From a virus, in the IMG/VR virus record IMGVR_UViG_3300032236_000548, positions 40,656 to 104,655 of that record: a DNA stretch of 64,000 bases. The stretch is one strand, 5' to 3'. The position numbers and the translations under genes were made by a program. Shown piece after piece: positions 885 to 64,000 of this stretch (the stretch's first letter is position 1; every line of letters starts with the position of its first letter). Below the pieces are notes generated by a model. That model searched no databases. It was not told the DNA's origin and worked only from the letters and a program-made list of their open reading frames with translations.

Positions 885-1391
885 ATGGCAAATTTACAAC
901 CGGTTGCTTACAAATATCAAAGCACAAAAGAATATGTAGACGCATTTCCATGCGCCTATAGACAGTGGAGGGCAGATAGCCACTGTAATTTGATCCATGG
1001 ATATGCTTTTAGCATGAAGTTCTATTTTGGGACTAACGACTTAGACGTTCGTAATTGGGCGGCTGATTACGGTGGATTAAAAGAACTCAAAAGTATGCTA
1101 GAAGATCAATTTGATCACACTTTATTGGTAAGTGAAGATGATCCAGAATTGGCTACTTACAAACTGCTACAAGAAAAGAAATTGGCTAAACTAACTATCC
1201 TACCTCGTTTAGGATGCGAAGGTTTAGCAGACATGCTGTACAAGTATGTAAACGGTGTTTACATTCCAGACATGTGGGGACAAGGCGAAGCCGATCGCTT
1301 ATGGTGCTACCGTGTGGAAGTTAGAGAAACTCAAAGTAATATGGCATTTAGAGAAGGGCACCGCGAGTGGAATGAGGATCTTCTTTCGTAA
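885..1391 (+). CDS. queD: 6-pyruvoyl-tetrahydropterin synthase / QueD family protein
   Basis: C-x3-HGY motif (HCNLIHGY), DYGGLK, FDHTLL, GCEGLA, VEVRET; AGGAG RBS. Confidence 0.85.
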   Translation: MANLQPVAYKYQSTKEYVDAFPCAYRQWRADSHCNLIHGYAFSMKFYFGTNDLDVRNWAADYGGLKELKSMLEDQFDHTLLVSEDDPELATYKLLQEKKLAKLTILPRLGCEGLADMLYKYVNGVYIPDMWGQGEADRLWCYRVEVRETQSNMAFREGHREWNEDLLS

Positions 1392-2805: not shown

Positions 2806-2824
2806 GGTATTTTATCCTCCAAGA

Positions 2825-2842
2825 TATTTACCTCGATAAATA
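2825..2842. promoter_or_regulatory. back-to-back TAAATA late-type promoters
   Basis: TATTTA (2825-2830, TAAATA on the minus strand) and TAAATA (2837-2842) between divergent genes. Confidence 0.6.
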
Positions 2843-2846
2843 CACT

Positions 2847-3407: not shown

Positions 3408-3672
3408 GACTACTAACTGGCATATCCCAAACTTTACGCGACTCAACACCCTTTTCCTGTGCAAACTTCTTAGCGTCACAATCTCCGCAAACGTGATAGT
3501 AGTTATTGTTTAACCTATTAGGATCCATTGATCCTTTATCGCGTTTAAAAATTCCCTGGCAACAATCGCAACGAAATATTACCACACGTTTCTTACGAAA
3601 ATATGTGTGGTTGTTCCCACGCTTACTTGTTCGCATGTATTGTGTTTGCTGGTATTCTGTTCCTAAGTACAT
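3385..3672 (-). CDS. small Zn-finger-like protein
   Basis: CDCC and CGDC cysteine pairs; TAAATA 5 nt upstream on the minus strand (3678-3683). Confidence 0.65.
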   Translation of the reverse strand: MYLGTEYQQTQYMRTSKRGNNHTYFRKKRVVIFRCDCCQGIFKRDKGSMDPNRLNNNYYHVCGDCDAKKFAQEKGVESRKVWDMPVSSLKTLDQF

Positions 3673-3742
3673 GATTGTATTTACTAGTTTACATTAAGAT
3701 TATAAAACGCCTTTGATAAATATTATATCGAGGGCTAAAATT

Positions 3743-4066
3743 GTGATCACAATTACTGAATCAGCAAAAACAAAAATTAAAGACATCCTTTATCAAGAAG
3801 GAAACCCAAGTTTAGCACTACGTACTTTTGTCCAAGGAGGTGGCTGTAGCGGTTTTAGTTACGGTTTTACACTAGACGAAGTAGCGAACGAAGACGATTT
3901 TGAAATCCCTGTTGATGAGTTTCGAGTGCTTGTAGACAGCATGAGTATGCAATACATGACAGGTGCAGAAATAGATTATAAAGAAGAGCTAATGGGCAGT
4001 AGTTTCACTATAAAGAATCCTAATGCGACAACACAATGCGGCTGCGGTAGCAGTTTCGGAGTTTAA
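3743..4066 (+). CDS. iscA: A-type Fe-S cluster carrier (IscA/ErpA/HesB family)
   Basis: ITITESA start, [13 protein letters not shown]-x3-CGCGSSF; GTG start at 3743 after a GAGG RBS and TAAATA (3717-3722). Confidence 0.92.
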
Positions 4067-18540: not shown

Positions 18541-21500
18541 ATGGCAATTTTAAATTTCCCAGATCATCCGCAGACTGGTGATCAATATACAGGTGATAAC
18601 GGTACTACTTATATATTTGATGGTGTTAAATGGTTAGGGACCGCAGGTGCAGGAACTAGTGGCACTAATAGTATTGTTAACAATGGTAATACTGTTCAAA
18701 TAGACAGTACTGGTAAGTTAGTATTACCCGCATACTCATTACCTAACACTACAGGTACAGCAGGGCAAGTATTGGTATGGCCAGGAAGTGGCACAACATT
18801 AACATGGGCTACACAAAGTGGCAGTGGCGGAGGTAGCGGATCTAGTTTAACTAACGGCGGTTACTCGGTATCATTAGGTGTTGACGGTTACTTAAATTTA
18901 CCTAACGGACTAGATACTGCTGGTGCATTGTTACAGAGCGCAAGTCCTATAAGAGTTAACAGCAACGGTCATTTCTGGACATTTGGAGCAGACGGCAAAC
19001 TATCGTTTCCTCCCACAGTAGCTTCTCCAGTAGGTACAACAACTCAAGCGTTTGGTATGGGCAATTTGTTTGCTTGGGAAGACGGCGACAATTGGACTAT
19101 TGCTACTGGTAATCCTAGTACTGGTGCATTTGGAGAAACTGGCATCAGCATCAGTCCAGGTATTGAAAGTAATGCTTATCTAAATCTTCCTTCTGACACA
19201 GATATCGGCAATGGGGCAACAACAACGCTGGCCAACTTTAGCGGCAATGTTGTGATACAGTCCGCCGATGGTAACTGGGTATTTGGTAAAGATAATTCAA
19301 CAATATTCCCTAACAGCACCCTAACCACTGACAAATTATCTATACAAGGTGCTCCATATACTATACAAATCACAGACAGCGGCGGTGTATGGCCTCCTGC
19401 TGTTAATACATACACAAGACTACCTGGGCTTGGAGATCCAAAATGGGTTCCAGCTAATTACAATGCCAGCAGTGACTCTTATATAACATTTTCTAATGGC
19501 CTTTGGGCACTTAGTAGTCCAAGTTTCCCTCATCCTGTTTATGTAAACACAGGAACACTATACGCTCCTTCAGCAACTTGGAATCCTGATACACAATTTG
19601 GTCTTGGATCTGGTAACCCCACAGGTGCTTATACCTACAACACTTGGTTATTTGATTCTAATGGAGATTTAACAGCACCAGGCGATATTGTTGTTGGTGG
19701 CGGCCTCAACGCCGGCGGACAAGAACAACACTTTATCATTGACAGTTCTAACTACTGGACCAGCATCCAGTGGAAAAACTTTGCCAATCCTCAAGATCCT
19801 GGTACTACGCCGTTTGAATGTCAAGCACAGTTGCTAAGAGTATTTGCCAACAATAATACAGTCACTAGTGAGTGTAATGTTCAAAATCCTCGTGAAGAAC
19901 TAGTAGCAGTAACAGTTGTTCGACCTGATAATACAAACTACAATGGTTTGATGATCAGTACCAGCGAAAGAAAAATTCCAGATGCTCCGTACAATGACGG
20001 AACTGGTGCAAGACACGATTTCTTATTTGGTGGTGATGGTTATCTAACTATGGAAAGCCTACACCTACAAGGTCACTTAAAAGGTGTAGATGGTAGCACC
20101 GGTTCAACAGGACAAGTATTAACACGTCAAAGCAATGGAGGCGCGGCTTGGGCAAATGCCACAGGAGGAAGTGGTAGTGTAGTATTCCGCACTGTTAGCT
20201 ATCCAGCAGGTGCAGATGGTGATACACAGGGCACAATCGCTGTTGACAACACTGGTAAAATTTATCTGTGTCTCACAACTTGGGCGGCGTCAAGTACAGT
20301 AACTTATAGCGCAACTAACAACACAGACTATGCTATCAGTCAAAGCGCCGGGCATCTTCTTATGTATCAAATAACTCCGTCAACCTTGCCAGACATACAG
20401 GCATTGTTTGGTACGTTTAACAACTATCAATATAACTATCCAACTCCCGGTGACTTTACACTAGAAGTTCCAGGCATCACTGGTCCTAGAACTGTTACCG
20501 CTTGTGGATATCTTTCAGGTAGCGGCGATATATGGTTTGATATTGCCTATGTGTCAGGAGATCCTACAACAGTTTCAATCGGTGATGCAGTAACAATTCA
20601 CTATACTCCACAACAGCCTGCTATTTGGGAAAAAGTTGGAGCCACCGGTAATATTAAATTTGACGGACAAAATATTAGCACTGACGTTGGCTCAAGCATC
20701 TACATAAAGTCAACCAGCGACTCAACAGATGATACCGAAGTTGACATTGGTACACATTATGTTGACATTTACACCTATAATGACACTTCAGGTAGTTCAG
20801 CAGAACTATACATAAACAATGCTGATCATGCTAATCCCTACGCTTATATCTATACACAAGCACACAACAGTGCCTCTAAACAATGGACATTTAACAAGGA
20901 TGGTAACATTGTATTTCCAGATAACACAGTACAGACCACTGCCTATGTACCTGGATCTACTGATCCATTGATATGGGCAGTACAAGCCGTATCGAATACC
21001 AAAGCAACTTTCATGCAAGCAGTGACTCACGACAGCGTAGGCAACGCTATCGCGCTGATGTGGCAAGGTAACTGGAATGGTCCCGGCGAAGGCAAAGCCA
21101 CTATAGTCAAACTAGACGACCACGGTAACCCAGTATGGGCTATAGACCTAGCCGATGGCAACAGCGTTAACCCTTGGAGTTTATGCTGTGACGCTAACAA
21201 TGATGTATATGTAATTACACAGCGAGTCAATGGCAGTGGCTATTACAACAACGCCGTGGTAAAATTAAGCACTAGTAATGGTGGCATCTTGTGGCAAACT
21301 GATATACAGGATTCACAGAACTCTAATAATATGCAGGCTGTGCCAATGGTGTATAGTTCAGGCGAACTTAGTTTCAATGGCATTGTAATTGCTGGTACTG
21401 CCTATAACGGAACAGACAATGATTTCTTTGTAACATTTATTAACAACGACGGCTCAGTACCTGCTCCATCGGTTTTACTTGGCGATCAATATGAGCAGGC

Positions 21501-22914
21501 GGCATATAGTGTAGCAGTTAATAATACTACAGGTGATATTTTATTTGTGGGTAGAAAACAGAGTAATACTGACGCACACTATTATCTGGAGATGGTTAAA
21601 CTCAACATTGCAAGCCCAAGTCCTGGTTGGCAAAAACAAGTTTCAGTAACTGGTGACAATTATAATGTTCAAGGTACCGACTGCTGTTTACTAGCAGATG
21701 GTAACTGGGCTATACTGGCCACACACGGTCACAGCAGTGGCGCTGGCATTATAACTATGAAGGTCAGTAATACCGATGGTAGTGTTATGTGGAGTAGAGA
21801 AGTTAGTCAAGGCTGTCAGGCAGTTAGCTCTAGTTTAACCACAGGCAGTGATGGAAATATTTACATTTCGGGAATAACTTTCAATGGACAAACTATTCCC
21901 CCATATGGCTTACCGTTAACCAGCAGAGTAGTAGCAGCCTATAACACCAGCGGCACTAGCCTGTGGCAAAAATGGTTTGGAGCACCGGGTAGCAATTCAC
22001 TTGTTGATGGTAACTCCTTTAACAGCATAGGTTTCGCGGGTAAACTTTTATCAATATCTAACGATCACCTACTTCTAGGATCATCTCTTCTTACATTCCC
22101 CGACGGTTCATATCCTTCAACATCAATAGGTGTTGTTGTACAAATTCCAACAGGCAGTGACAATCAAGTAATTGGACCATTTGAACTTACCAACAGTAAT
22201 TTATCGGGTACTAGTGTTGCAATGACTGTGGCAGATACTGAATTTACCTTTAGTCAAGGTAGTCAAACGTTTGGTTCAGGATCAACAATATCTGGTACTA
22301 ACAGTTCAGTATCTTGGACAAAATTTAACTCGGGCGTTAGACCAAATCAGCTAGCCGCTAGCACCAAGACTCTAACACTACAGACAAATGGTTTGCTAGT
22401 TGATGAAAATATCAGAAGCATCACAGGTGAGTTTAACGGCCTTACTGAAAACACTGGTAACTATAGCAACAGCCAAATTTCAATTAGAAATGCTTCGGGT
22501 TACAAACGTATCAACAACTTGGACAGCGCACCGCAGACTTGGTTTAATGTCAGCGATGTGGCCACTCAGTTAGGAGTCAATCAATACTGGATTACCAGTG
22601 TAAGTATGGAATTCCAAGTGACCAGCAGTGGACTTGGTAACAGCGGTGACGTCTGTACAATGGTAGGAACTATTTTAATGGCTCACGACTATAGTTGGGG
22701 CAGAAACAGTGTCACACACACTGAAACAGCTATCTATGGCAACGACGATAACGCAGACGCTTATGTATTTGCTAACTTGGAACTATGGAATGCACCAAAT
22801 GGTAATATGCAATTGAAAACCTACAGAACTGACGGCAACAGTGGACAACAGCTAGACATTATGTGGACAGCTCGAGTCTTTATTAACCCAATGCTGGTAG
22901 AAAGATACTGCTAA
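18541..22914 (+). CDS. tail fibre / adhesin with probable beta-propeller region
   Basis: LNFP..P..GD.Y N-terminus, GQVL..W fibre repeats, W.F..DG.L.FP repeats, propeller-like blades (G...W...) in the C-terminal half. Confidence 0.7.
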   Translation: MAILNFPDHPQTGDQYTGDNGTTYIFDGVKWLGTAGAGTSGTNSIVNNGNTVQIDSTGKLVLPAYSLPNTTGTAGQVLVWPGSGTTLTWATQSGSGGGSGSSLTNGGYSVSLGVDGYLNLPNGLDTAGALLQSASPIRVNSNGHFWTFGADGKLSFPPTVASPVGTTTQAFGMGNLFAWEDGDNWTIATGNPSTGAFGETGISISPGIESNAYLNLPSDTDIGNGATTTLANFSGNVVIQSADGNWVFGKDNSTIFPNSTLTTDKLSIQGAPYTIQITDSGGVWPPAVNTYTRLPGLGDPKWVPANYNASSDSYITFSNGLWALSSPSFPHPVYVNTGTLYAPSATWNPDTQFGLGSGNPTGAYTYNTWLFDSNGDLTAPGDIVVGGGLNAGGQEQHFIIDSSNYWTSIQWKNFANPQDPGTTPFECQAQLLRVFANNNTVTSECNVQNPREELVAVTVVRPDNTNYNGLMISTSERKIPDAPYNDGTGARHDFLFGGDGYLTMESLHLQGHLKGVDGSTGSTGQVLTRQSNGGAAWANATGGSGSVVFRTVSYPAGADGDTQGTIAVDNTGKIYLCLTTWAASSTVTYSATNNTDYAISQSAGHLLMYQITPSTLPDIQALFGTFNNYQYNYPTPGDFTLEVPGITGPRTVTACGYLSGSGDIWFDIAYVSGDPTTVSIGDAVTIHYTPQQPAIWEKVGATGNIKFDGQNISTDVGSSIYIKSTSDSTDDTEVDIGTHYVDIYTYNDTSGSSAELYINNADHANPYAYIYTQAHNSASKQWTFNKDGNIVFPDNTVQTTAYVPGSTDPLIWAVQAVSNTKATFMQAVTHDSVGNAIALMWQGNWNGPGEGKATIVKLDDHGNPVWAIDLADGNSVNPWSLCCDANNDVYVITQRVNGSGYYNNAVVKLSTSNGGILWQTDIQDSQNSNNMQAVPMVYSSGELSFNGIVIAGTAYNGTDNDFFVTFINNDGSVPAPSVLLGDQYEQAAYSVAVNNTTGDILFVGRKQSNTDAHYYLEMVKLNIASPSPGWQKQVSVTGDNYNVQGTDCCLLADGNWAILATHGHSSGAGIITMKVSNTDGSVMWSREVSQGCQAVSSSLTTGSDGNIYISGITFNGQTIPPYGLPLTSRVVAAYNTSGTSLWQKWFGAPGSNSLVDGNSFNSIGFAGKLLSISNDHLLLGSSLLTFPDGSYPSTSIGVVVQIPTGSDNQVIGPFELTNSNLSGTSVAMTVADTEFTFSQGSQTFGSGSTISGTNSSVSWTKFNSGVRPNQLAASTKTLTLQTNGLLVDENIRSITGEFNGLTENTGNYSNSQISIRNASGYKRINNLDSAPQTWFNVSDVATQLGVNQYWITSVSMEFQVTSSGLGNSGDVCTMVGTILMAHDYSWGRNSVTHTETAIYGNDDNADAYVFANLELWNAPNGNMQLKTYRTDGNSGQQLDIMWTARVFINPMLVERYC

Positions 22915-54365: not shown

Positions 54366-57035
54366 ATGTCTTATGTAGACGCATGGTTTGACCGCGAGAA
54401 CGACATCGTTAAAGTGGTTGAACGCAACAAGAAAGGCGATAGGGAATTTAGAGACATTCCTGTACGCCATACATTTTATGTAAAAGACCCACGCGGCAAA
54501 TTTCAATCAATCTATGGAGATGCACTAACACGCATTGTCTGTAAGAACACAAAAGAACTACGCAAAGAACAAGCCATTAACAGTGGCAAGGAAATGTTTG
54601 AATCAGACATTAATCCAATCTTTGTAACATTAAGTGAAAACTATCTTAATCAAGATGCTCCAAAATTAAATGTAGCATTTTTCGATATTGAGGTAGATTT
54701 CGATCCAGAGCGAGGCTATGCTAGTCCAGACGATGCATTTATGCCAATTACTGCGATTGCAATCTACCTACAATGGTTAGAGACTATGGTATGTTTAGCA
54801 ATTCCGCCTAAAGGTTTAAAGATGGAAAATGCTAAGGAAATGGTTAAAGAATTTCCTAATACTATGTTGTTTGATAACGAAGCAGATTTACTAGATACGT
54901 TTTTAGATTTAATTAAAGACGCAGATATTATTAGTGGTTGGAATAGCGAAGGCTTCGATATCCCGTATACTACTAACCGCGTTACAAAAGTTTTAAGCAA
55001 AGAAGATACTAGACGTTTTTGTTTGTTTGATCAGTTTCCAAAAAAACGTGAATACGAAAAGTTTGGTCGTCAAAGTACAACATACGATTATATCGGTCGT
55101 GTACACTTAGACTATCTAGAGCTATATCGTAAGTACACATATGAAGAACGCCATAGCTATCGACTAGATGCTATTGCCGAATATGAACTAGGCAAACGTA
55201 AAACACAATACGAAGGCACTTTGGATCAGTTATACAACAATGACTTTAAAACATTTGTTGAATACAACATCAATGACTGTAAACTGCTTGACGATTTAGA
55301 CAAGAAGTTAAAGTTTATGGATCTTGCCAATACGCTGGCTCATGAAAATACAGTATTGCTCCAAACAACTATGGGCGCAGTTGCGGTTACTGAACAAGCT
55401 ATTATTAACGAATCTCATCGCCGAGGTTTTCAAGTTCCTAATAGAACTAAAATGAGCGAGCGTGAAGAAAATACTGCGGCCGCTGGTGCGTATGTTGCAT
55501 ATCCTAAAGAAGGCATACACGACTGGATTGGATCTTTAGATATTAACTCACTGTATCCATCAGCTATTCGTGCGTTAAACATGGGTCCTGAAACTATTAT
55601 CGGTCAGCTTCGTCAAACAATGACGGAAGAGTTTATTGAAGCACAGATGGCAAAGGGCAAATCATTTGCGGCTGCATGGGAAGGTATCTTTGGATCATTA
55701 GAATACACAGCAGTAATGGAACAAGAAATTGGAACTGACATTACTATTGACTGGGAAGATGGTTCTAGTGATATTCTAAGTGCCGCAGAAGTATACAGAC
55801 TTATTTTTGAAAGTAACCAGCCTTGGGTACTCAGTGCGAACGGAACAATCTTTACTTACGAGAAAGAAGGTATTATTCCTGGACTATTAAAACGTTGGTA
55901 TGCTGAACGTAAAGAGATGCAGGCCAAATTAAAAGAAGCAATCAAAGCTGGTAATAAGATTGAAGAAGAATACTGGGATAAACGACAACTAGTTAAGAAG
56001 ATTAATTTGAACAGTTTGTATGGTGCTATTCTTAACAGCGGCTGTCGCTTCTTTGATAAACGTATTGGTCAAAGTACGACACTTACTGGTCGACAAATTG
56101 TTCGTCATATGGCAGGTAAAGTAAATGAAATCATTGCTGGCGAATATGATTATCGCGGTAAGGCAGTTATATATGGCGATACGGACTCTTGTTACTTTAC
56201 AGCCTATACTACTTTGAAGAAAGATATCGACAAAGGACTTATTCCTTGGACTAAAGAAACTGTTATCCAACTATACGATACTATCGGAGAAGAAGTTAAT
56301 ACTACGTTCCCACAATTTATGTTGGATACATTCCATGTACCTAAAAGCCGCGGTGAAGTTATTAAAGCAGGACGTGAAATTGTCGGTAGTAAGAGTTTGT
56401 TTATTACTAAAAAACGTTATGCTGTTCTTTATTACGATAAAGAAGGCAAGCGTACTGACGTTGATGGCAAACCAGGCAAGATTAAAGCCATGGGCTTGGA
56501 TCTAAAACGTTCAGACACTCCTGAATTTATTCAAGACTTCTTAAGTGAAGTGTTGGAAATGGTACTTATGGGTAAACCTGAACAAGAAGTGTTGGATCAT
56601 ATTAGCGAGTTTCGTATGAGATTCAAGGGAAGACCAGGTTGGGAAAAAGGTTCGCCTAAACGTGCTAATAAAATTACCGAGTATAACGGTAAAGAAGTCA
56701 AGTCCGGCAAGACTAACATGCCTGGACACGTTCGTGCAAGTATTAACTGGAACACACTAAAGCGTATTTTCGACGACAAATACTCTATGAGTATTACTGA
56801 CGGTGCTAAAGTTATTGTTTGCAAGCTCAAACCTAACCCACTAGGCTTTACTAGTGTAGCATATCCAGTGGATGAGCTACGTTTACCACAGTGGTTTAAG
56901 GATCTACCGTTCGATCATGCAGAAATGGAACAGACAATTATCGATAATAAGTTAGAAAACTTAATCGGTGTATTGAAATGGGACATTGCTAGTACTGAAG
57001 AGAAGAACACATTTAACAGTTTATTCGAGTTCTAA
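54366..57035 (+). CDS. family B DNA polymerase (T4 gp43-like)
   Basis: ExoI FDIEV, ExoII GWNSEGFDIPY, ExoIII YNIND, DINSLYPS, KINLNSLYG, YGDTDS, KKRY. Confidence 0.96.
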   Translation: MSYVDAWFDRENDIVKVVERNKKGDREFRDIPVRHTFYVKDPRGKFQSIYGDALTRIVCKNTKELRKEQAINSGKEMFESDINPIFVTLSENYLNQDAPKLNVAFFDIEVDFDPERGYASPDDAFMPITAIAIYLQWLETMVCLAIPPKGLKMENAKEMVKEFPNTMLFDNEADLLDTFLDLIKDADIISGWNSEGFDIPYTTNRVTKVLSKEDTRRFCLFDQFPKKREYEKFGRQSTTYDYIGRVHLDYLELYRKYTYEERHSYRLDAIAEYELGKRKTQYEGTLDQLYNNDFKTFVEYNINDCKLLDDLDKKLKFMDLANTLAHENTVLLQTTMGAVAVTEQAIINESHRRGFQVPNRTKMSEREENTAAAGAYVAYPKEGIHDWIGSLDINSLYPSAIRALNMGPETIIGQLRQTMTEEFIEAQMAKGKSFAAAWEGIFGSLEYTAVMEQEIGTDITIDWEDGSSDILSAAEVYRLIFESNQPWVLSANGTIFTYEKEGIIPGLLKRWYAERKEMQAKLKEAIKAGNKIEEEYWDKRQLVKKINLNSLYGAILNSGCRFFDKRIGQSTTLTGRQIVRHMAGKVNEIIAGEYDYRGKAVIYGDTDSCYFTAYTTLKKDIDKGLIPWTKETVIQLYDTIGEEVNTTFPQFMLDTFHVPKSRGEVIKAGREIVGSKSLFITKKRYAVLYYDKEGKRTDVDGKPGKIKAMGLDLKRSDTPEFIQDFLSEVLEMVLMGKPEQEVLDHISEFRMRFKGRPGWEKGSPKRANKITEYNGKEVKSGKTNMPGHVRASINWNTLKRIFDDKYSMSITDGAKVIVCKLKPNPLGFTSVAYPVDELRLPQWFKDLPFDHAEMEQTIIDNKLENLIGVLKWDIASTEEKNTFNSLFEF

Positions 57036-57036
57036 T

Positions 57037-57813
57037 ATGGAAATTATAATTGCAGGATACGGATTTGTCGGCAAAGCAGTAAGCGAGGGTATTAAACATG
57101 CTCATACTACTTGCATTGTTGATCCAAAATATACTACAGCCGAAATAAAACACTTTCCAATGGCTGATGGCATTGTCATTTGCGTAGGAACGCCTAGCGA
57201 TCCTACAGGCGATTGCGATGTTAGTCAAATTTATAGTGTTTTAGACGATACACCTATACATATACCAGTACTAATCAAGTCGACTGTTCCTCCAGATTAC
57301 TTGGAAAAGATTATGACAACATACAAAGATCATAGTATTTGTTATAGTCCTGAGTTTTTACGTGCGGCTACTGCTAATGAAGACTTTGCAAATCAAACAT
57401 ACATGGTGTTAGGTGGTGACGATCCAGAAGGCTTTTGGCATTCTGTGTTTCAATCCGCATTGCCTAACTGTAAAGTAATCTTTAATACTAGTATCACCGA
57501 AGCTAGTATGATCAAATATGCTACTAATTGCTTCTTAAGTGTTAAAGTAACCTTTTTTAATCAGCTATACGATACATGTAAGCAAAATGGTGCAGATTTT
57601 AACCTTGTAAGACAAGTACTACTACACGATAAACGTATTGGTAACAGTCATACTATGGTGCCTGGTACAGATGGAACACGTGGTTTTGGCGGCGCTTGCT
57701 TTCCAAAAGACACAAACGCATACATGTTATATTCAGATCGAGTAAATCAATCGCATACATTGGTCGAATCGGCAATAAAATATAACAAGAAAATAAGAAA
57801 AACATTGACATAG
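57037..57813 (+). CDS. UDP-glucose/GDP-mannose dehydrogenase family protein (lacking C-terminal domain)
   Basis: IAGYGFVG, ICVGTP, IKSTVPP, SPEFLR, KYATN.FL..KV.FFN, GFGGACFPKD; start at 57037. Confidence 0.85.
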   Translation: MEIIIAGYGFVGKAVSEGIKHAHTTCIVDPKYTTAEIKHFPMADGIVICVGTPSDPTGDCDVSQIYSVLDDTPIHIPVLIKSTVPPDYLEKIMTTYKDHSICYSPEFLRAATANEDFANQTYMVLGGDDPEGFWHSVFQSALPNCKVIFNTSITEASMIKYATNCFLSVKVTFFNQLYDTCKQNGADFNLVRQVLLHDKRIGNSHTMVPGTDGTRGFGGACFPKDTNAYMLYSDRVNQSHTLVESAIKYNKKIRKTLT

Positions 57814-57832
57814 TCACAAAAACCTATATAAT
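57805..57832 (+). promoter_or_regulatory. sigma70-type promoter
   Basis: TTGACA, 16 bp, TATAAT. Confidence 0.72.
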
Positions 57833-57852
57833 AAGAAAACATGGAGAATCAT

Positions 57853-58584
57853 ATGAAAGACTTTTTACAAGATTTAGTATCACATACACACAGCCTGGGC
57901 TTTTTGCCTTTGGTAAAGATTTCGGCAAGCGAAAAAGAAACCGCTATCGAATCAATGGCTGAAGACCGTAGTGTTATTCTAAATGCAAAAACACACAATC
58001 CAGTAGATGCATTGGAAGGAACATTTGGTATGCCTAACTTAAACAAGCTAGACATCCATTTGAAGTGTCCAGAATACAAAGAGAACGCAACTATTAATGT
58101 TGTTAAGCAACAGCGCAATGGTGAAGATGTTCTTACTGGCTTACACTTTGCTAATAACACAGGCGACTTTGAAAACGACTATCGTTTTATGAGTTTGGAA
58201 GTTATTAACGACAAACTTAAGACTGTAAAATTCAAAGGTGCTAAGTGGGATATTGAATTTAGCCCAAGTGTTGCTAGTATTCAAAAATTAAAATTCCAGG
58301 CGGCTGCTCATAGCGAAGAACAAACATTCCAAGTTAGTACAGAAGACAATAACTTGGTATTCAGCTTCGGTGATGCTAGTACACATGCAGGTAGTTTTGT
58401 ATTCCATAGCGGAGTAAATGGCAAATTGCGTCAAACTTGGAGTTGGCCAGTTGCACAAGTTCAATCTATTTTGAACTTGCCCGGTGATGTTACAATGCGT
58501 ATTGCAGATGTAGGTGCATTAAACATTACTGTAGATAGCGGCATTGCAGTTTACGACTACATTTTGCCAGCACAATCTAAATAA
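57853..58584 (+). CDS. probable sliding clamp (gp45/PCNA-like)
   Basis: About 243 aa, two-domain alpha/beta pattern ending ...G.L.I.....A.Y.YILPA; near PolB, with a clamp loader in the window. Fold inferred, not proven. Confidence 0.55.
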   Translation: MKDFLQDLVSHTHSLGFLPLVKISASEKETAIESMAEDRSVILNAKTHNPVDALEGTFGMPNLNKLDIHLKCPEYKENATINVVKQQRNGEDVLTGLHFANNTGDFENDYRFMSLEVINDKLKTVKFKGAKWDIEFSPSVASIQKLKFQAAAHSEEQTFQVSTEDNNLVFSFGDASTHAGSFVFHSGVNGKLRQTWSWPVAQVQSILNLPGDVTMRIADVGALNITVDSGIAVYDYILPAQSK

Positions 58585-58937
58585 TGAACATTGAACAGAT
58601 AGCTTACGCCACCATAGCATGGATGGTGCTCACATTTATAACATATACTCATTGTAGATGGAGTAACATAAAATCATGCTATGGCATGTGGTTTACAAAG
58701 GAGTACTGGACCAGTTATAATATTGTAGATGCGTTAAGCTGGTTAGCAAAAGCAATGATTATTATTCCAGGGTTAATCTTTGGAGTACAAATATGGCAAC
58801 TATATTGGATTGCGTTAATCACATCTGTTGCACTTATATGGGCAAGCTATAAAAGATTTAGTCCAACCGTAGTTGGCTTTAATACAATATGGTGTTGGAT
58901 TAGTTGCATGGTGCTAGCACAACATTTGGTAAAATAA
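58584..58937 (+). CDS. hypothetical multi-pass membrane protein
   Basis: About 4 hydrophobic, Trp-rich helices; translationally coupled on both sides. Confidence 0.65.
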   Translation: MNIEQIAYATIAWMVLTFITYTHCRWSNIKSCYGMWFTKEYWTSYNIVDALSWLAKAMIIIPGLIFGVQIWQLYWIALITSVALIWASYKRFSPTVVGFNTIWCWISCMVLAQHLVK

Positions 58938-60643
58938 TGAATAAGAATTTAACAGCAACTCAAAACGATTATGCGTATTTCCTTCCAGCAACGTCTGGTT
59001 TCTTTAGTACATATATAGGAAAACAACGCTATAGCAACTACGTAGATCCTGCTCGCATTCCTGCGAGCTTTGGACATATGGGCATAGAAGCTATGAACTA
59101 CTTGAATCCTAATGCGGCATTTTACTTTGACCACTGTTTGTATTCAGCAGGTCATGCTAACTTAGATTTAACTAAACCTGATCCTAGTGAAGATATGTTT
59201 CGTAACAGAGACCGTTCAACTAGTTGGGTTTTAGGTGATTCAGGTGGATTCCAGATTGGTAAAGGTGTGTGGGCAGGTGAATGGAGAGATCCAACCGGGC
59301 CAGAAGTCGCGGCTAAATGGAAAGAAGTACGTGCTAAAGGTGTTGAACTTGTTCCACAATTAGATGCTACAGGCAATCCTAAGCTAGATAAGAATGGTAA
59401 TCCTAAAATGACTAAGATTGACCATGTTAAAAACTATCAAGCACAATTAGATGCGGCACAAAAGAAACGTGAGCAAGTGCTTGCGTGGATGGACGCACTA
59501 ATGGACTATGGCATGGTGTTAGATATTCCAGCTTGGGTCGAACGTAGTCCTGCCGGACGTGCGGCAACAGGTATCGAATCGTATCAACAAGCTGTCAATG
59601 CTACAAAATACAATAACGAATACTTTATTAAACATCGCACAGGTGCTTGTAAGTTCTTAAATGTGTTACAAGGCGAGAATCACGCACAAGCAGAAGATTG
59701 GTATCAGCAAATGAAAGACTTCTGCGACCCAACAAAGTATGATAATCCATTTAACGGTTGGGCAATGGGTGGACAAAATATGTGTGACGTGGATCTAGTA
59801 TTACGTAGATTAGTCGCATTAAAGTTTGACGGATTGCTAGAACAAGGTCATCAAGACTGGATGCACTTCTTGGGCACTAGTAAATTAGAATGGGCATTGT
59901 TGCTAACAGACTTACAACGTGCTATTCGCAAGTATCATAATCCAAACTTTACAATCAGTTTTGACTGTGCTAGTCCATTCCTAGCAACTGCTAATGGACA
60001 AATTTACGTTCAAACAGAAATTAAAGACAGAGAAAAATGGTTGTACAGAATGTTACCTAGTTTAGATAACAAGAAGTATAGTCAAGATACACGTCTATTC
60101 AAAGATGTTGTAGTACAAGATAAACACTTTACTAACTTTGAATCAAGTCCAATTATGGATGGTGTAGAAGTTAATAAAATTTGTATCTATGGACCTAACG
60201 ACCTAAATAAGATTGGTAAAGTTGGCAAGACTAGTTGGGATAGTTTTACGTATGCTATTATGATGGGTCATAATGTTTGGTTGCATTTGAATAGTGTACA
60301 AGAAGCCAATCGTCAATATGATGCCGGCCTATGCCCAGCTATGTTGGTAGATGAAAAGTTTGAACGTGTGTACTTCAAAGATGTAGTAGATGCTATCTTT
60401 AGTGCTCCAGACCGTGCAACTGCTAATGCCATTATCGATCATTATGACAAATTTTGGCAAGCTATTCCTGGAACACGTGGTGCTACAGGTAAGAAAACAG
60501 TTAATGCTAGTACAATGTTCTCCACATTGTTTGACGAAGAAGGTGCAGATACTGTACAATCAGAAGACGAACAAGAATTTGGCGAAGATGTTTCCGATAA
60601 ATTAGACGAACTAGAAGCAAGCGTACATGACATTACCCGATGA
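58937..60643 (+). CDS. tRNA-guanine transglycosylase (TGT)/DpdA-like protein
   Basis: LGDSGGFQ, MVLDIP, NVLQG, GWAMGG, HFLG, SFDCASP, HN: the TGT-barrel catalytic motifs in order; start at 58937. Confidence 0.8.
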   Translation: MNKNLTATQNDYAYFLPATSGFFSTYIGKQRYSNYVDPARIPASFGHMGIEAMNYLNPNAAFYFDHCLYSAGHANLDLTKPDPSEDMFRNRDRSTSWVLGDSGGFQIGKGVWAGEWRDPTGPEVAAKWKEVRAKGVELVPQLDATGNPKLDKNGNPKMTKIDHVKNYQAQLDAAQKKREQVLAWMDALMDYGMVLDIPAWVERSPAGRAATGIESYQQAVNATKYNNEYFIKHRTGACKFLNVLQGENHAQAEDWYQQMKDFCDPTKYDNPFNGWAMGGQNMCDVDLVLRRLVALKFDGLLEQGHQDWMHFLGTSKLEWALLLTDLQRAIRKYHNPNFTISFDCASPFLATANGQIYVQTEIKDREKWLYRMLPSLDNKKYSQDTRLFKDVVVQDKHFTNFESSPIMDGVEVNKICIYGPNDLNKIGKVGKTSWDSFTYAIMMGHNVWLHLNSVQEANRQYDAGLCPAMLVDEKFERVYFKDVVDAIFSAPDRATANAIIDHYDKFWQAIPGTRGATGKKTVNASTMFSTLFDEEGADTVQSEDEQEFGEDVSDKLDELEASVHDITR

Positions 60644-60887
60644 AAGATACCGTGCTGTAATGGCGGCAAAAGAATTGCTAGTGGATTTAACTGATCCAAA
60701 AGCAACTCCTAGGATTCCACAAATGATTCGGCTACGTGCTGGACATTGTTTGCGACACTTTCCTAGCGAGTGGGATATGGATCTTGCTAGTCGTGTTGCG
60801 CCTGAAGTGTTTGCTAAACGCATGGAAGATGTAACTCGTATGTTTATGAAATACGAACAATCAAAGGCAGAAAAAGATGAAAACTAG
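60627..60887 (+). CDS. hypothetical protein
   Basis: MTLPDERYRA...TPRIP...R..A..CLRHFP motif; overlaps both neighbours. Confidence 0.7.
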   Translation: MTLPDERYRAVMAAKELLVDLTDPKATPRIPQMIRLRAGHCLRHFPSEWDMDLASRVAPEVFAKRMEDVTRMFMKYEQSKAEKDEN

Positions 60888-61764
60888 TCTTATTGTAGGA
60901 ATGGGTATTGGCAATTTATATGCTACTGTACTAGATAATCTTGGACATGGTATTATTACAGTCGATGCTGATCCTAGCAAAGGTGCAGATTTTACAAGTG
61001 TAGATGATGCTATTAAAGAAATTCGATTATTTGATACAGCGCATATATGTACACCAAATTTTACACACGAAGAAATTGCACGTAAACTCGCACCTGTAAC
61101 TAAAATTGTATTCATCGAAAAGCCAGGTGTTATAAATTCCACAGCCTGGCAACAACTAGTAGAAGATTTCAAATACACACGCTTTATGATGGTTAAGAAC
61201 AATCAATGGCGTAGTAACTTTGCAGATGTTAAAAGTATGTCAGATCGTGCAAAGACTGTTAACTTGCGATGGGTTAATAAAGATCGCGTTCCTAATCCAG
61301 GTAGCTGGTTTACTACAAAAGCATTATCATATGGCGGTGTTAGTAGAGATTTAATGCCACATTTATTGAGCTGGATGACTAAACTAGATACCAATTATAA
61401 ACATACAGAATGTGTTTTAAAAACACACCATCAACGTTGGAAGTTAGAAGATTTACTCACTACTGATTACGGTACTGTAAATCCTAATGGTACATACGAT
61501 GTTGATGATTTTTATTACCTCGAATATAAAAACAATGATAAACGTTGGTTGTTAACTGCCGACTGGCGTGGATTAGGAGATGAAAGAATACACATTCAAT
61601 TTATCTACCCAGATGACACATATGATATAGTCGAGCTTGGACTATGCCCCGAAGATGCTTATCAAAGTATGATTCAAGATGCTGTTGATCATGTTAACGA
61701 TCCTGCATTCTGGCTTAACCAATTAGAACAAGATTTGTGGATACACGAAAATATAACACTATGA
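60877..61764 (+). CDS. Gfo/Idh/MocA family oxidoreductase
   Basis: IVGMGIG, ICTPNFTH, FIEKP, GG...DL.PH. Confidence 0.85.
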   Translation: MKTSLIVGMGIGNLYATVLDNLGHGIITVDADPSKGADFTSVDDAIKEIRLFDTAHICTPNFTHEEIARKLAPVTKIVFIEKPGVINSTAWQQLVEDFKYTRFMMVKNNQWRSNFADVKSMSDRAKTVNLRWVNKDRVPNPGSWFTTKALSYGGVSRDLMPHLLSWMTKLDTNYKHTECVLKTHHQRWKLEDLLTTDYGTVNPNGTYDVDDFYYLEYKNNDKRWLLTADWRGLGDERIHIQFIYPDDTYDIVELGLCPEDAYQSMIQDAVDHVNDPAFWLNQLEQDLWIHENITL

Positions 61765-62666
61765 AAGTAAAATGTTTACAGACAACAGGTCAAGGCTACT
61801 TTGAAGAAGTTGAATACGACAAACCTGATCCTGCTCCGCATCAAATAGAAGTGCGGGCAATTATGACCGGTGTTTGTCGCAGTGATGTTGATATGATGAT
61901 GGGCGAGTTTGGTCCGTTACCTTTGCACATGCAAGGCCACGAAGGCATTGGGCAAGTAACTCGTTTGGGGTCAGATGTAGTAACAACTAAAATCGGTGCG
62001 TATGTAGCAACACGCGGTGAACCAGCGTATGCAGATTATTACAATGTTCAAATGGATGAATATGTAGAAATTCCCGAAGCTGATCCTAAGTATATTTTAG
62101 AGCCAGTTGCTTGCGGTATTAACTTAATTAATCAAGCCAAAGATCAAATTGAACATAGACAAGGCAGAAATGAAAACACTAGAATGCTAATTATTGGCAG
62201 TGGGTTTCTTGCGTGGGTCGCTTACCATACTATGCGCCTAAATGGTTTTATCTATCATGTAGATGTACTAGGTCATAGCAATAAAGAGCTTTGGGGAGAT
62301 AAGCTAATTTCAAGTACTATTGAAAATTATGATGTGGTGGTAGATCTTAGTGGAAACTATGAGTTGGGTTTACAGATTAACCTAAATAATAACGCATTGA
62401 TTATCGATGGTGTTGGCAAAGCAGTTAGTAAACAAGAGGCCCAAGCTCAATTATGGAAAGCTGTTACCACTATCAAACCTAGTCCACGCAATCCAAAATT
62501 TATCGATTGTATGCACATGGCCAAATATTGGATTAAAAACGGTTATCTAGAGGTTGATTCGTTCTGGACAAAGTGTTACAATCGTAGTACAGAATGGGAA
62601 CAAGCGTTTGCGGACGGCGTTAATCGTCCGAAGGGTTATAGCAGAGGTTATATTAAATGGGGTTGA
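61761..62666 (+). CDS. Zn-dependent medium-chain dehydrogenase (sugar/threonine DH-like)
   Basis: GVCRSD, GHEGIG.V, LEPVACG, IIGSGFLA; start at 61761. Confidence 0.85.
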   Translation: MKVKCLQTTGQGYFEEVEYDKPDPAPHQIEVRAIMTGVCRSDVDMMMGEFGPLPLHMQGHEGIGQVTRLGSDVVTTKIGAYVATRGEPAYADYYNVQMDEYVEIPEADPKYILEPVACGINLINQAKDQIEHRQGRNENTRMLIIGSGFLAWVAYHTMRLNGFIYHVDVLGHSNKELWGDKLISSTIENYDVVVDLSGNYELGLQINLNNNALIIDGVGKAVSKQEAQAQLWKAVTTIKPSPRNPKFIDCMHMAKYWIKNGYLEVDSFWTKCYNRSTEWEQAFADGVNRPKGYSRGYIKWG

Positions 62667-63172
62667 ACACTGACGAAAGACAGAACATTGTCTACTTTAC
62701 AGGGTACGAAGTTGAACATACTATTTGTCACGGTATGAAAACATTGTTTGTTGTAGGCACTCCCGATTTAGAAGACATTATATACAAAGCCAGACAAACC
62801 GAATGTAAGCATATTTACTTTGGTACAAGTCAGAGTTTTAATCCTAAATCAATATCGCAAGAAGAATATAAACCGTGGGATGATGTTATCCTAGGTTGTT
62901 TAAAGAATGACTACTGGGTGACTTTAGACTTTGGTGTAGAGCACACAGAAGGTGTCATCGAATCTGGTTATTCAGAATACCAGAAATTCGTTCCGATGAT
63001 TAGTGTAAAATTACCATACATTAATCAATTTAATTACAACGCCACACTTAAACTAGATGATCGCACTTGGGGTGCTACTAATCCAGGTGTGTGGACCCAT
63101 CAACTACATGATCTAATGAGTAAAGACAAATATACTTACTGGGATCAATATACACAAGATACACCAACATGA
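62657..63172 (+). CDS. hypothetical protein in the DNA-modification cluster
   Basis: Overlaps both neighbours; G.EVE.T...G..TLFV, HIYFG..SF. Confidence 0.7.
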   Translation: MGLNTDERQNIVYFTGYEVEHTICHGMKTLFVVGTPDLEDIIYKARQTECKHIYFGTSQSFNPKSISQEEYKPWDDVILGCLKNDYWVTLDFGVEHTEGVIESGYSEYQKFVPMISVKLPYINQFNYNATLKLDDRTWGATNPGVWTHQLHDLMSKDKYTYWDQYTQDTPT

Positions 63173-63564
63173 TTATTAAACAAGACATTCGCCCTAACAA
63201 GATGATTTGGGTTACCTTTCAGAAAGAAGGTATTCACTGCTATCCAGCGGCCGCAACAGATCCTAACCTAGCAACCGGAGATTATTATGACGTATCGTTT
63301 CTTGGCACTCCTCATCGCCATATCTTTCACTTTAGGGTTTGGCTTGGCGTTACCCACAATGACCGAGATGTGGAGTTCATTCAATTCAAGCGGTGGCTTG
63401 AAAGGTTGTATTCTAGCGAACAAGGTGTACTGTCGCTAGATTATAAAAGTTGCGAGATGATGAGCGATGATTTATATGCTCAAATCTCAGCAAAGTATCC
63501 AGACCGCGAGGTTTGGATTGAGGTCTCCGAAGACGGAGAAAATGGTTCATTTATCAAATATTAA
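63169..63564 (+). CDS. second QueD/PTPS-like T-fold protein
   Basis: GIH.Y, HRHIFHFRV, DVEF...K, SCEM....LY, IEVSEDGENG: H-x-H, S-x-E and terminal V-x-E pattern of 6-PTPS/QueD. Confidence 0.6.
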   Translation: MIIKQDIRPNKMIWVTFQKEGIHCYPAAATDPNLATGDYYDVSFLGTPHRHIFHFRVWLGVTHNDRDVEFIQFKRWLERLYSSEQGVLSLDYKSCEMMSDDLYAQISAKYPDREVWIEVSEDGENGSFIKY

Positions 63565-63577
63565 AACAAGAGGCTAT

Positions 63578-63838
63578 ATGGCTAAAAATTACAAAGATTA
63601 TTCTTATTTCGAAAACCGTCCGGATGTCGTTAAGATTTTTGACGACTTAGAAGCGTTCCATGATTGGTGTCGTTTAGAGATGGCTCCGTTTGACGAAAGT
63701 CATTTGTACAATCGTGAAAGCTGGGCATGGCGCAATTTCGAAAAGAGTCGTCGTCCTAAGAAACCATTCAACGGCGAACGTAAACCTTACTTAGGTAAGA
63801 ACCCACGCTATAATAACAATGACCGTATTTCTAATTGA
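63578..63838 (+). CDS. hypothetical protein
   Basis: GAGG RBS before the ATG at 63578; VVKIFDDLE..HDWCR motif. Confidence 0.65.
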   Translation: MAKNYKDYSYFENRPDVVKIFDDLEAFHDWCRLEMAPFDESHLYNRESWAWRNFEKSRRPKKPFNGERKPYLGKNPRYNNNDRISN

Positions 63839-64000
63839 TCTAGAAGCTGTCGAGACAAGGTACACGGGCCAGTGGAAGGCTCATGTACCTCACCTCTTAC
63901 GAAAGGCAGGACACGATGTTCAAGTTATATGTGGGCCTACGGATATTCCTACAGCCACTACTCCTGGTGCTTTTCTTAATTTTGGTGGCACCAATATATA
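63819..64000 (+). CDS. 3'-truncated probable glycosyltransferase (GT-B N-terminus)
   Basis: Not in the ORF track. ATG at 63819 reads MTVFLIDLEAVETRYTGQWKAHVPHLLRKAGHDVQVICGP...GAFLNFGGTNI, open to the window end; the L.K.GHDV.V pattern is typical of GT-B N-domains. Confidence 0.5.
   Translation, partial: MTVFLIDLEAVETRYTGQWKAHVPHLLRKAGHDVQVICGPTDIPTATTPGAFLNFGGTNI

Follow-up and report, generated by a model that had tools for sequence, protein, structure and literature searches.

A candidate QueC-less 7-deazaguanine gene set and a virus-specific glycosyltransferase in a replication-coupled operon of an uncultured giant phage

Results

A 7-deazaguanine gene set within a replication operon

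The window (the whole stretch of DNA analyzed, 64,000 nt) contains the first two-thirds of a replication-coupled operon of ~13 kb from an uncultured giant phage. Its gene set is well supported as the known QueC-less, DpdL/DpdA3-type pathway already described for phage phiST, with a long DpdA relative that is invisible to Pfam, and goes beyond the phiST pathway in encoding a virus-specific GT4-like glycosyltransferase. The first-pass annotation had proposed a sugar-decorated 7-deazaguanine in phage DNA; its deazaguanine half is well supported and can be specified further than proposed, as the QueC-less DpdL/DpdA3 route. It is very probable that 7-deazaguanine is present in the phage DNA. As an overall explanation, we tentatively suggest that the operon makes 7-deazaguanine and inserts it into phage DNA, and that the glycosyltransferase most likely adds a sugar to this DNA or to a precursor. 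The genes concerned are listed below, with the evidence in parentheses.

885..1391, +, QueD-like protein of the PTPS family (CPH4 synthase step), 53 kb upstream of the block
54366..57035, +, family B DNA polymerase (PolB), the operon's first large gene (Pfam DNA_pol_B, phrog_262)
57037..57813, +, mini-UGDH, truncated UDP-glucose/GDP-mannose dehydrogenase-family protein, 258 aa (PF00984, PF03721, phrog_9148)
57841..58584, +, putative clamp-like protein, 247 aa (phrog_12062)
58584..58937, +, hydrophobic membrane-like protein, 117 aa (translation)
58937..60643, +, long-form DpdA3-like guanine transglycosylase with TGT fold, 568 aa, candidate DNA base-exchange enzyme (AF2, Foldseek, hhalign)
60627..60887, +, small BPSL0761-family protein (NCBIfam NF041728)
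60877..61764, +, Gfo/Idh/MocA-type oxidoreductase (PF01408, EKP motif)
61737..62666, +, MDR (zinc alcohol dehydrogenase)-type oxidoreductase, likely start ATG 61761 (PF08240, GHE motif)
62657..63172, +, p171, alpha/beta protein travelling with the cassette (PA5oct and ACP17 homology)
63169..63564, +, DpdL, proposed 7-carboxy-7-deazaguanine decarboxylase, QueD paralogue (motif, homology, phrog_17812)
63467..63838, +, small ORF, likely start ~63578 (ORF list and translation)
63819..64000, +, virus-specific GT4-like glycosyltransferase, first 60 aa, cut at the contig end (PA5oct and ACP17 homology)

According to the ORF list and translations, all of these genes are on the + strand and translationally coupled. 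PolB stops at 57035 and the next ATG is at 57037, one-base overlaps occur at 58584 and at 58937, and the other overlapping junctions are 60627/60643, 60877/60887, 61761/61764, 62657/62666, 63169/63172 and 63819/63838. Each of 80 related contigs has the order DsbA-PolB-[UGDH]-clamp-TGT-BPSL-Gfo-ADH-p171-DpdL-GT-...-FolE over the part that it covers. PolB matches Pfam DNA_pol_B (2e-37) and phrog_262 (6e-197) and shares 48-50% identity with PolB of PA5oct and Phosso. The BPSL0761-family gene (NF041728, 1.8e-14) keeps its position in all relatives, and the 117-aa hydrophobic protein had no family match in Pfam, PHROG or NCBIfam. The clamp-like protein belongs to a family of unknown function (phrog_12062, 7e-38) and had no match in a PDB sequence search; its homologues adjoin the transglycosylase in PA5oct and Phosso. 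Their annotations differ, from sliding clamp (one Phosso copy) to virion protein (PA5oct).

A long transglycosylase related to DpdA3

The 568-aa ORF at 58937-60643 had no match among Pfam, PHROG, NCBIfam and PDB sequences. Its AlphaFold (AF2) model is confident (pLDDT 90.5), the top 50 Foldseek matches to this model are all TGT, and VIA structure comparison with TGT gave Z 17-18.5 over ~300 residues; all agree with the earlier assignment to the TGT fold and predict a tRNA-guanine transglycosylase barrel. Profile comparison by hhalign aligned it with DpdA3 at 96.2% probability (E 2.5e-9), with profile-level DpdA3 homologues in ACP17, X1 and phiST. Two catalytic-type Asp motifs, D101 (DSGGFQ) and D343 (SFDCASP), do not vary among 50 homologues, and the alignment with these homologues shows no conservation of the TGT zinc site (CxCxxC...H). 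Compared with phiST DpdA3, the protein carries an insertion of ~55 residues and is extended at the C-terminus. It constitutes a separate family (943 cluster representatives, E up to 0.001); the PA5oct member shows 30% identity at 98% coverage. Long-form transglycosylase and short DpdA3 occupy the same module and are mutually exclusive, and the long-form gene is the only TGT-superfamily gene in PA5oct, Phosso and the two complete relatives of this phage (G001 and G002; 383 and 356 kb).

The comparison with DpdA and tRNA TGT, which the first-pass annotation had suggested, also bears on the substrate. All of the nearest solved structures are tRNA-guanine transglycosylases, as would be expected if the enzyme put 7-deazaguanine into host or phage tRNA and left DNA untouched. 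This is highly improbable, since the enzyme has neither a Pfam TGT match nor the zinc site, shares homology with the DpdA3 group, which is associated with DNA, and is encoded between polymerase, clamp-like and primase genes, and since G-containing sites in PA5oct virion DNA are resistant. In the preferred reading, this long DpdA3 relative would exchange 7-deazaguanine for guanine in DNA.

Precursor synthesis without QueC

The second QueD-like T-fold protein of the earlier annotation exists and is more exactly DpdL, encoded at 63169-63564 rather than 62657-63172. Its LGTPHRHIF fits the DpdL motif LxxxHRHxF (PMC10516641), it matches phrog_17812 (2.5e-32), and its identity is 54.5% to ACP17 DpdL and 33% to phiST DpdL. 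The gene at 885-1391, previously called a canonical QueD, is a PTPS-family member (Pfam, 1.5e-14) with 52.8% identity to ACP17 QueD and a CxxxHGY motif common to QueD of phiST, ACP17, RHph_I1_18 and BUCT-ZZ01, but it falls below the QueD equivalog cut-off TIGR03367.

Neither FolE nor QueE was found within the window. In G001 and G002, where the first-pass annotation had advised looking for the precursor genes, FolE and QueE lie 8-10 kb downstream and QueD elsewhere, which would place FolE and QueE shortly past the contig end in the present phage; PA5oct also has all three. QueC, QueF and PF01702 (canonical TGT) were not found in G001, G002 or PA5oct. With FolE, QueE and QueD present, QueC, QueF and canonical TGT absent and DpdL encoded, the gene set points to the QueC-less DpdL-type pathway. 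These gene identities, folds, motifs, synteny and the completeness of the pathway in relatives are established, and from them we infer the enzymatic steps, the DNA target and the sugar acceptor. FolE, QueD and QueE would convert GTP to 7-carboxy-7-deazaguanine, which DpdL, in the absence of QueC, would decarboxylate to 7-deazaguanine.

In the Cellulophaga phage phiST, FolE, QueD, QueE, DpdL and DpdA3 yield 2'-deoxy-7-deazaguanosine (dDG), which replaces all G (Cui, Hutinet et al. 2023, PMC10516641), and attempts to reconstitute DpdL plus DpdA3 failed (PMC10516641). The present locus resembles that of phiST in its QueC-less gene set, DpdL motif, profile-level transglycosylase homology and location beside the replicative polymerase. 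It differs in the length of the transglycosylase (568 aa versus 259 aa) and in having a GT4-like glycosyltransferase, p171, two oxidoreductases and mini-UGDH, whereas phiST has MazG and a small ATPase instead. In the Campylobacter phage CP220, also QueC-less and of DpdA3 type, all G is replaced by 7-amido-7-deazaguanine (PMC10516641). CP220 shares a homologous mini-UGDH, two genes after QueE, but its final base is an amide, and a search of 18.7 kb of its sequence detected neither a DpdL nor a GT4 homologue. The locus EST35_0311-0322 of PA5oct, a Pseudomonas jumbo phage (Wroclawvirus), shares the gene order from PolB through the clamp-like gene, a small ORF, the long transglycosylase, the glycosyltransferase and DpdL and, further on, QueE, although PolB is split there by a homing endonuclease. 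Experiments have shown that PA5oct DNA contains a modified G; the DNA resists cleavage at restriction sites with G, and nucleases sensing hypermodified DNA target it (PMC12191111).

Complete G replacement in DpdA3-type phages (PMC10516641) is hard to achieve purely after replication, and the genes here sit in a PolB/clamp operon. Free deazaguanine, possibly sugar-modified, might instead be converted to a deoxynucleotide used by the adjacent PolB, with the TGT-fold enzyme acting on nucleotides or only patching residual G. The annotated xanthine-guanine phosphoribosyltransferase in the BUCT-ZZ01 module and the MazG-type dNTP pyrophosphatase in that of phiST would fit such a route. However, phosphoribosyltransferase, kinase and dGTPase were not recognised in the present block, and every lineage retains the one enzyme that has a base-exchange fold, making pre-replicative incorporation improbable compared with exchange in DNA.

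A glycosyltransferase associated with the module

The partial ORF at 63819-64000 is homologous to PA5oct EST35_0317 and ACP17 ASD50404; 60 aa lie in the window and the remainder past the contig end, and a full-length relative is found at L043:15096-16196. Glycos_transf_1 was found in five of the ten family members (best 8e-12), and the family is annotated as glycosyltransferase in Phosso, PAC2 and by JGI. What had been read as the start of a probable GT-B glycosyltransferase is, by family homology, the N-terminus of a GT4-like protein. Its expected co-occurrence with the transglycosylase holds in seven lineages with differing gene orders (PA5oct, Phosso, ACP17, X1/BUDD, BCSR5, BUCT-ZZ01 and the present group), in which it lies within ~3 kb of DpdL, usually adjoining DpdL or the transglycosylase. 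Several of these lineages have related PolB genes, and part of the co-occurrence may reflect shared ancestry.

The glycosyltransferase probably acts in the same pathway as the deazaguanine genes, and its presence in the module across lineages makes a sugar-related step plausible; it would most likely glycosylate the modified DNA or the base precursor. That the sugar sits on deazaguanine itself, as first proposed, is doubtful: the gene does belong to the module, but C7 of plain 7-deazaguanine bears neither a hydroxyl nor an amine, and the base offers no obvious handle for a sugar. A sugar-bearing purine in this phage's DNA is possible, and a literature search found no report of a sugar step on deazaguanine in phage DNA.

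Two known systems offer partial parallels. In T4, alpha- and beta-glucosyltransferases of GT-B type glucosylate hydroxymethylcytosine and thereby evade restriction. Here, too, a phage enzyme of GT-B type whose gene lies among replication genes would decorate a non-canonical base, but base, acceptor chemistry and enzyme family differ, and no ThyA-family enzyme (hydroxymethylase) was found in G001 or G002, so that they have no hydroxymethyl-pyrimidine acceptor. Animal tRNA contains mannosyl- and galactosyl-queuosine, formed on the cyclopentenediol of queuosine, one of the transferases being GT4-like. This resembles the proposed scheme in placing a sugar on a 7-deazaguanine derivative after TGT base exchange, but it acts on tRNA, and the present phage, which lacks QueC, QueF, QueA and QueG, cannot make the cyclopentenediol.

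It is also conceivable, though rather unlikely, that the DNA contains plain dDG, and that the glycosyltransferase and the oxidoreductases have another target, such as glycans of the virion or host envelope, a further metabolite or a different DNA base, sharing only early/middle expression with the replication genes. phiST, which encodes DpdL but no such glycosyltransferase, makes plain dDG and thus shows that the pathway can run without this enzyme; RHph_I1_18 and Ahp1 likewise have DpdL with no such gene nearby. In addition, the closest outgroup glycosyltransferases (Xanthomonas phages) occur with GlmS and a deacetylase and no deazaguanine genes. On the other hand, the gene stays at DpdL/DpdA through several independent rearrangements in seven lineages and three transglycosylase subfamilies, and G001 and G002 lack a ThyA-type enzyme that could create another acceptor base. 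A sugar-adding role within the deazaguanine pathway is preferred.

Lineage-specific accessory genes

Mini-UGDH (57037-57813), which had been called a UDP-sugar dehydrogenase, is a real gene of that family (PF00984, 2e-20; PF03721, 2e-11; phrog_9148, 1e-40) in which the NAD domain, the central domain and a Cys motif (GGACFPKD) are present. However, it is truncated, without the C-terminal UDP-binding domain, and scores 147.8 against the TIGR03026 cut-off of 189.8. Its position varies within the block in relatives (after PolB or adjoining FolE), and no homologue was found in PA5oct. Many phages have UGDH genes, truncated or full, next to epimerases or glycosyltransferases and without Que genes, which is in line with plain dDG.

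The two other predicted dehydrogenases are present as annotated. The Gfo/Idh/MocA N-domain (PF01408) scores 6e-7 and 30.6 bits (cut-off 24), with an EKP motif and 32% identity to PA5oct EST35_0362, and ADH_N (PF08240) in 61737-62666 scores 1.4e-9 and 38.6 bits (cut-off 23.5), with a GHE motif and 36% identity to EST35_0363. Their expected co-occurrence with the transglycosylase is confined to certain lineages: ACP17, X1, BCSR5 and Phosso lack them, and PA5oct alone shares the Gfo/Idh/MocA-ADH-p171 cassette, there unlinked and 25 kb from the deazaguanine genes, which fits the plain-dDG reading. Absent from most glycosyltransferase-bearing lineages and unlinked in PA5oct, the dehydrogenases are lineage-specific and weakly tied to the deazaguanine pathway, and their membership in it is not established. 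Together with p171 and mini-UGDH, they may be accessories that make or tailor the sugar. The AF2 model of p171 (pLDDT 68) gave no fold match. By sequence, p171 (62657-63172) is 42% identical to PA5oct EST35_0364 and 31% identical to ACP17 ASD50402, the latter encoded directly upstream of ACP17 DpdA3.

Gene content of the replication block

The source record is linear, with a length of 104,655 bp, of which the window is the final 64 kb; its CheckV completeness is 28%, so that the full phage genome would be about 370 kb. Two relatives, G001 (383 kb, 100% complete) and G002 (356 kb, 96%), were used as complete genomes for comparison. Megablast found nothing similar to the block region among phage genomes, and the 80 related IMG/VR loci are close relatives (82-90% identity) that were counted as one lineage. 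The first-pass annotation had described PolB and a probable clamp interleaved with sugar-modifying enzymes, a TGT-fold protein, a second QueD-like protein and the start of a glycosyltransferase. This arrangement was confirmed: the listed genes are present on the + strand and overlap or abut in an operon-like manner, and several identities could be refined. The features discussed here are as follows.

885-1391: QueD-like protein, outside the block
57037-57813, + strand: truncated UDP-sugar dehydrogenase (mini-UGDH)
58584-58937, + strand: membrane-like ORF
58937-60643, + strand: 568-aa ORF, putative long-form transglycosylase with a predicted TGT fold
62657-63172, + strand: p171
63169-63564, + strand: DpdL
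from 63819 to the window end, + strand: start of a GT4-like glycosyltransferase (GT)

The PolB assignment is certain. The probable clamp is indeed present as a 247-aa ORF (phrog_12062), but its sliding-clamp label comes only from the annotation of a homologue in Sinorhizobium phage Phosso, and PDB sequences gave no match. Phosso (L006, L093) has two clamp-like copies, one after PolB beside DpdL, GT and FolE, and the other 170 kb away beside the long transglycosylase, a primase and a helicase.

A predicted DpdL-type deazaguanine pathway

The second QueD-like protein (63169-63564) reads LGTPHRHIF at the position of the CxxxHGH motif of QueD, and is 54.5% identical to DpdL of phage ACP17 and 33% identical to DpdL of Cellulophaga phage phiST, over more than 90% of its length. 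DpdL is a QueD paralogue with the signature LxxxHRHxF, proposed to decarboxylate 7-carboxy-7-deazaguanine (Cui, Hutinet et al.; PMC10516641), where attempts at reconstitution are reported to have failed; our literature search found no further relevant paper on it. phiST uses a QueC-less, DpdL-type route, and all of its G is replaced by 2'-deoxy-7-deazaguanosine (PMC10516641).

The remaining pathway genes were sought in the window's record and in its relatives. FolE and QueE are absent from the record itself, which ends 3.3 kb past the transglycosylase. In every related contig long enough to show it, the block runs on through GT, p129, p159, p161 and FolE, and QueE comes after FolE in G001-G004. 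QueD is encoded elsewhere in the genome. Neither QueC nor QueF was found in the complete relatives, which makes preQ0 or preQ1 products unlikely; PF01702 is absent from them as well. FolE, QueD and QueE without QueC, beside the replicative polymerase, match the context expected of DpdA3. Judged by gene content, the predicted pathway is the QueC-less DpdL-type route, as in phiST. The first-pass reading of a deazaguanine system was right, the system being of a known kind.

The QueD-like ORF at 885-1391, previously called canonical, matches the PTPS domain at 1.5e-14, with a TIGR03367 score of 31.6 (cut-off 89.25). Its motif is CxxxHGY, and not the canonical zinc motif CxxxHGH, a feature shared by QueD of ACP17, RHph_I1_18, BUCT-ZZ01 and phiST, the last being a proven dDG phage. 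A preQ1-type riboswitch upstream of queD (600-1000) was rejected, with no Rfam match at E up to 1, and the whole window gave no Rfam match at gathering thresholds. Upstream of the window, the same record carries an operon with several PP-loop paralogues (G000:C1:12423-21310), one of which (C1:19282-19476) has a weak PP-loop/QueC match (E 4.6e-5) below the cut-off; no QueC-like match was found in G001. In Synechococcus phage BUCT-ZZ01 (ON615601.1, L102, 2611-9545), the module comprises QueE, an annotated xanthine-guanine phosphoribosyltransferase, one gene, QueD and FolE, followed by a 447-aa protein, DpdA3, DpdL and GT. The presence of the phosphoribosyltransferase suggests that the pathway may have a branch at the nucleotide level.

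A putative long-form transglycosylase family

The 568-aa ORF could be identified only by structure and profile-profile comparison. Searches against Pfam, PHROGs, NCBIfam and PDB (by phmmer and, for PDB, also with a 50-sequence profile) returned nothing relevant, and PF01702 at E up to 1 had no match in the window's record or its relatives. An AlphaFold2 model built from 50 homologues was confident (pLDDT 90.5). All of its top 50 Foldseek matches in PDB are tRNA-guanine transglycosylases (E about 1e-7), and VIA-align superposed about 300 residues with Z of 17-18.5 and rmsd of 4.2-4.8 on bacterial, archaeal and human enzymes alike. The TIM-barrel catalytic fold of TGT is thus present in the model. 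D101 (DSGGFQ) and D343 (SFDCASP), which lie in the superfamily Asp motifs DSGG(F/Y)Q and (M/S)FD(C/S) and which we take to be equivalent to Z. mobilis D102 and D280, are invariant in the 50 homologues, whose identity is 28-90%. For the zinc site (CxCxxC...H), no conserved Cys cluster was detected, and only C416 (80%) and H445 (86%) are conserved.

Comparison by hhalign with DpdA3 of ACP17, X1 and phiST (CGPG_00065) gave a probability of 96.2% (E 2.5e-9, 189 columns), with the barrel motifs in register and the Asp motifs of the two families aligned. The HMM (A1) matched a 424-aa protein of ACP17 at 2.9e-9 and phiST gp042 at 8e-5, both E-values being from a small database. No relatedness to DpdA3 was found by tblastn, and the kinship is distant. 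No other TGT-superfamily gene was found in G001, G002, Pseudomonas jumbo phage PA5oct or Phosso. ACP17 has the short DpdA3 and lacks the long form. On the basis of its fold, motifs, DpdA3 profile match and position as the sole transglycosylase of these genomes, we read the 568-aa protein as a probable long-form relative of DpdA3 that would fill the same pathway slot. Its description as a TGT-fold protein is upheld by the predicted barrel; a zinc site and a PF01702 match are absent.

Metagenomic homologues are abundant, with more than 7,500 at E up to 0.001 and 943 representatives in a search of 50%-identity clusters. Together with these homologues the protein forms a large DpdA-like family, missed by standard annotation and without a Pfam or PHROG model, and in jumbo phages resembling PA5oct or Phosso it is the sole candidate for a transglycosylase. 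These results hold independently of the question of a sugar.

A glycosyltransferase embedded in the module

The window ends with 60 codons that encode the start of a 366-aa protein, a whole copy of which is found in a related locus (L043:15096-16196). PF00534 (Glycos_transf_1) matches five of ten family members (best 8e-12), and PF13692 and PF20706 match two each, these other matches being to Glyco_trans_1_4 and the "GT4 in conflict systems" family. The Glycos_transf_1-type C-terminal domain was seen in family members, the window itself holding the N-terminal 60 aa. The domain match is weak in the ACP17 and PA5oct copies. Several sources annotate the family as glycosyltransferase, the only PDB sequence to match it, putative glycosyltransferase 8xsg, does so weakly (E 0.057), and it falls in virus-only clusters of the ESM Atlas.

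In isolated phages, GT lies within about 3 kb of DpdL and adjoins DpdL or the transglycosylase in varying order. DpdL is present without GT in phiST, RHph_I1_18 and Ahp1.

Gene order around GT in isolated phages
PA5oct: DpdA-long, GT, DpdL
ACP17: DpdA3, GT, DpdL, QueE
X1: GT, DpdA, DpdL, QueE
Phosso: DpdL, GT, one gene, FolE
BCSR5: DpdL, four genes, GT, then DSGGFQ protein
BUCT-ZZ01: DpdA3, DpdL, GT

Glycosylation of hmC or hmU is an unlikely role for GT, since G001 and G002 have no ThyA-family hydroxymethylase and hence no source of a pyrimidine acceptor. More distantly related GT proteins in Xanthomonas phages are encoded with GlmS and a deacetylase, as fits a true sugar transferase. In Xanthomonas phage PhiXhv-15 (L103, 5669-8903) the neighbours are GlmS and a GlcNAc-deacetylase-like gene; this locus looks like an amino-sugar module and has no deazaguanine genes.

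Dehydrogenases and p171

The mini-UGDH keeps the NAD-binding and central domains (PF03721, 2e-11; PF00984, 2e-20) and the GGACFPKD Cys motif. Its C-terminal UDP/GDP-binding domain is missing, the protein ending about 35 aa past the Cys, and its TIGR03026 score of 147.8, from a match to profile positions 67-298 of 413, falls short of the cut-off of 189.8. The Gfo/Idh/MocA protein (PF01408, 30.6 bits against a cut-off of 24; IEKPG present) and the zinc-dependent MDR-type dehydrogenase (PF08240, 38.6 bits against 23.5; Cys/His zinc ligands in a GVCRSD...GHEG pattern) exceed the Pfam cut-offs in the N-terminal domain alone; the C-terminal domain of the former is below cut-off, and for the latter no cofactor domain was detected and no specific equivalog cut-off was reached.

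These enzymes had been proposed to remodel a sugar within the pathway. The genes are all present, but a pathway role is only suggested by position in one lineage, because the Gfo-ADH-p171 cassette, although kept in the same order in PA5oct, lies there 25 kb from the deazaguanine genes, the two oxidoreductases have no homologues in isolate genomes other than PA5oct (so that Phosso, ACP17, X1 and BCSR5 lack both), and the mini-UGDH is widespread. In relatives of the window, the mini-UGDH has two alternative places in the block, one following PolB and one preceding FolE; elsewhere, many phages have members of its family next to epimerase or glycosyltransferase genes and with no Que genes.

An echo of the block (membrane-like ORF and mini-UGDH) was observed in the 7-amido-7-deazaguanine Campylobacter phage CP220 (NC_027997.1, L097, 7931-9765), where QueE is followed by a 2-TM membrane protein and then, two genes after QueE, by a truncated UDP-glucose dehydrogenase homologue. 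It was rejected as a GT/DpdA3 module, neither gene being within 18.7 kb of its mini-UGDH.

For p171, no Pfam, PHROG or NCBIfam match was found; its AlphaFold2 model is only partly confident (pLDDT 68) and had no Foldseek match in PDB at E up to 0.001. A glycoside-hydrolase-like assignment was discarded, as ESM Atlas fragments scored at most 0.84, which is at chance level. An additional relative lies just upstream of DpdA3 in ACP17.

A possible sugar on the deazaguanine

A sugar on the deazaguanine itself, as first proposed, is a reasonable inference, though less likely than not. The chief chemical objection is that 7-deazaguanine offers GT no handle. Two genes after GT, past the window end, L043:16505-16984 encodes a 159-aa protein matching phrog_4786 "cysteine dioxygenase" (cupin, 9e-37), which was found only in the freshwater group. 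This cupin dioxygenase-like gene could supply a hydroxyl handle, and in the freshwater giant phages the mini-UGDH and the Gfo/Idh/MocA and ADH-type enzymes might carry out further redox steps on the sugar. It is possible, though in our view rather improbable, that the conserved GT4-like enzyme works together with the DpdL/DpdA module to produce a glycosylated 7-deazapurine in DNA. Its carriers might then include, with the same reserve, the culturable phages PA5oct, ACP17, Phosso, X1/BUDD, BCSR5 and BUCT-ZZ01. With several carriers in culture, the question is directly testable.

To our knowledge, all eight 7-deazaguanine derivatives known in DNA carry small C7 substituents, and our literature search turned up no report of deazaguanine glycosylation in DNA. 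Replacement of G by 7-deazaguanines is a major means of phage escape from restriction and CRISPR; a sugar-bearing 7-deazapurine, if true, would be the first case of a purine with an attached sugar in DNA of any kind, and with it a new chemical class of base. It would also account for the uncharacterised "modified G" in the DNA of PA5oct, a phage that has been tried in models of airway infection. According to a 2025 preprint, PA5oct DNA resists cleavage at restriction sites containing G, and the phage is restricted by nucleases sensing hypermodified DNA and encodes QueE and a PTPS; its authors deduce that G is modified, in a structure they leave open, and do not name a transglycosylase (PMC12191111). 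What goes beyond the literature here is the long DpdA-like family and the glycosyltransferase embedded in the module.

Other genes in the window

Directly after queD, 1464-4066 encodes in a row a UvdE UV-endonuclease, an Fe/Mn superoxide dismutase and an IscA-type Fe-S assembly protein. The following region, 4070-18037, is a single giant ORF of 4,655 aa, probably virion-associated, and is followed by a 1,457-aa ORF at 18541-22914.
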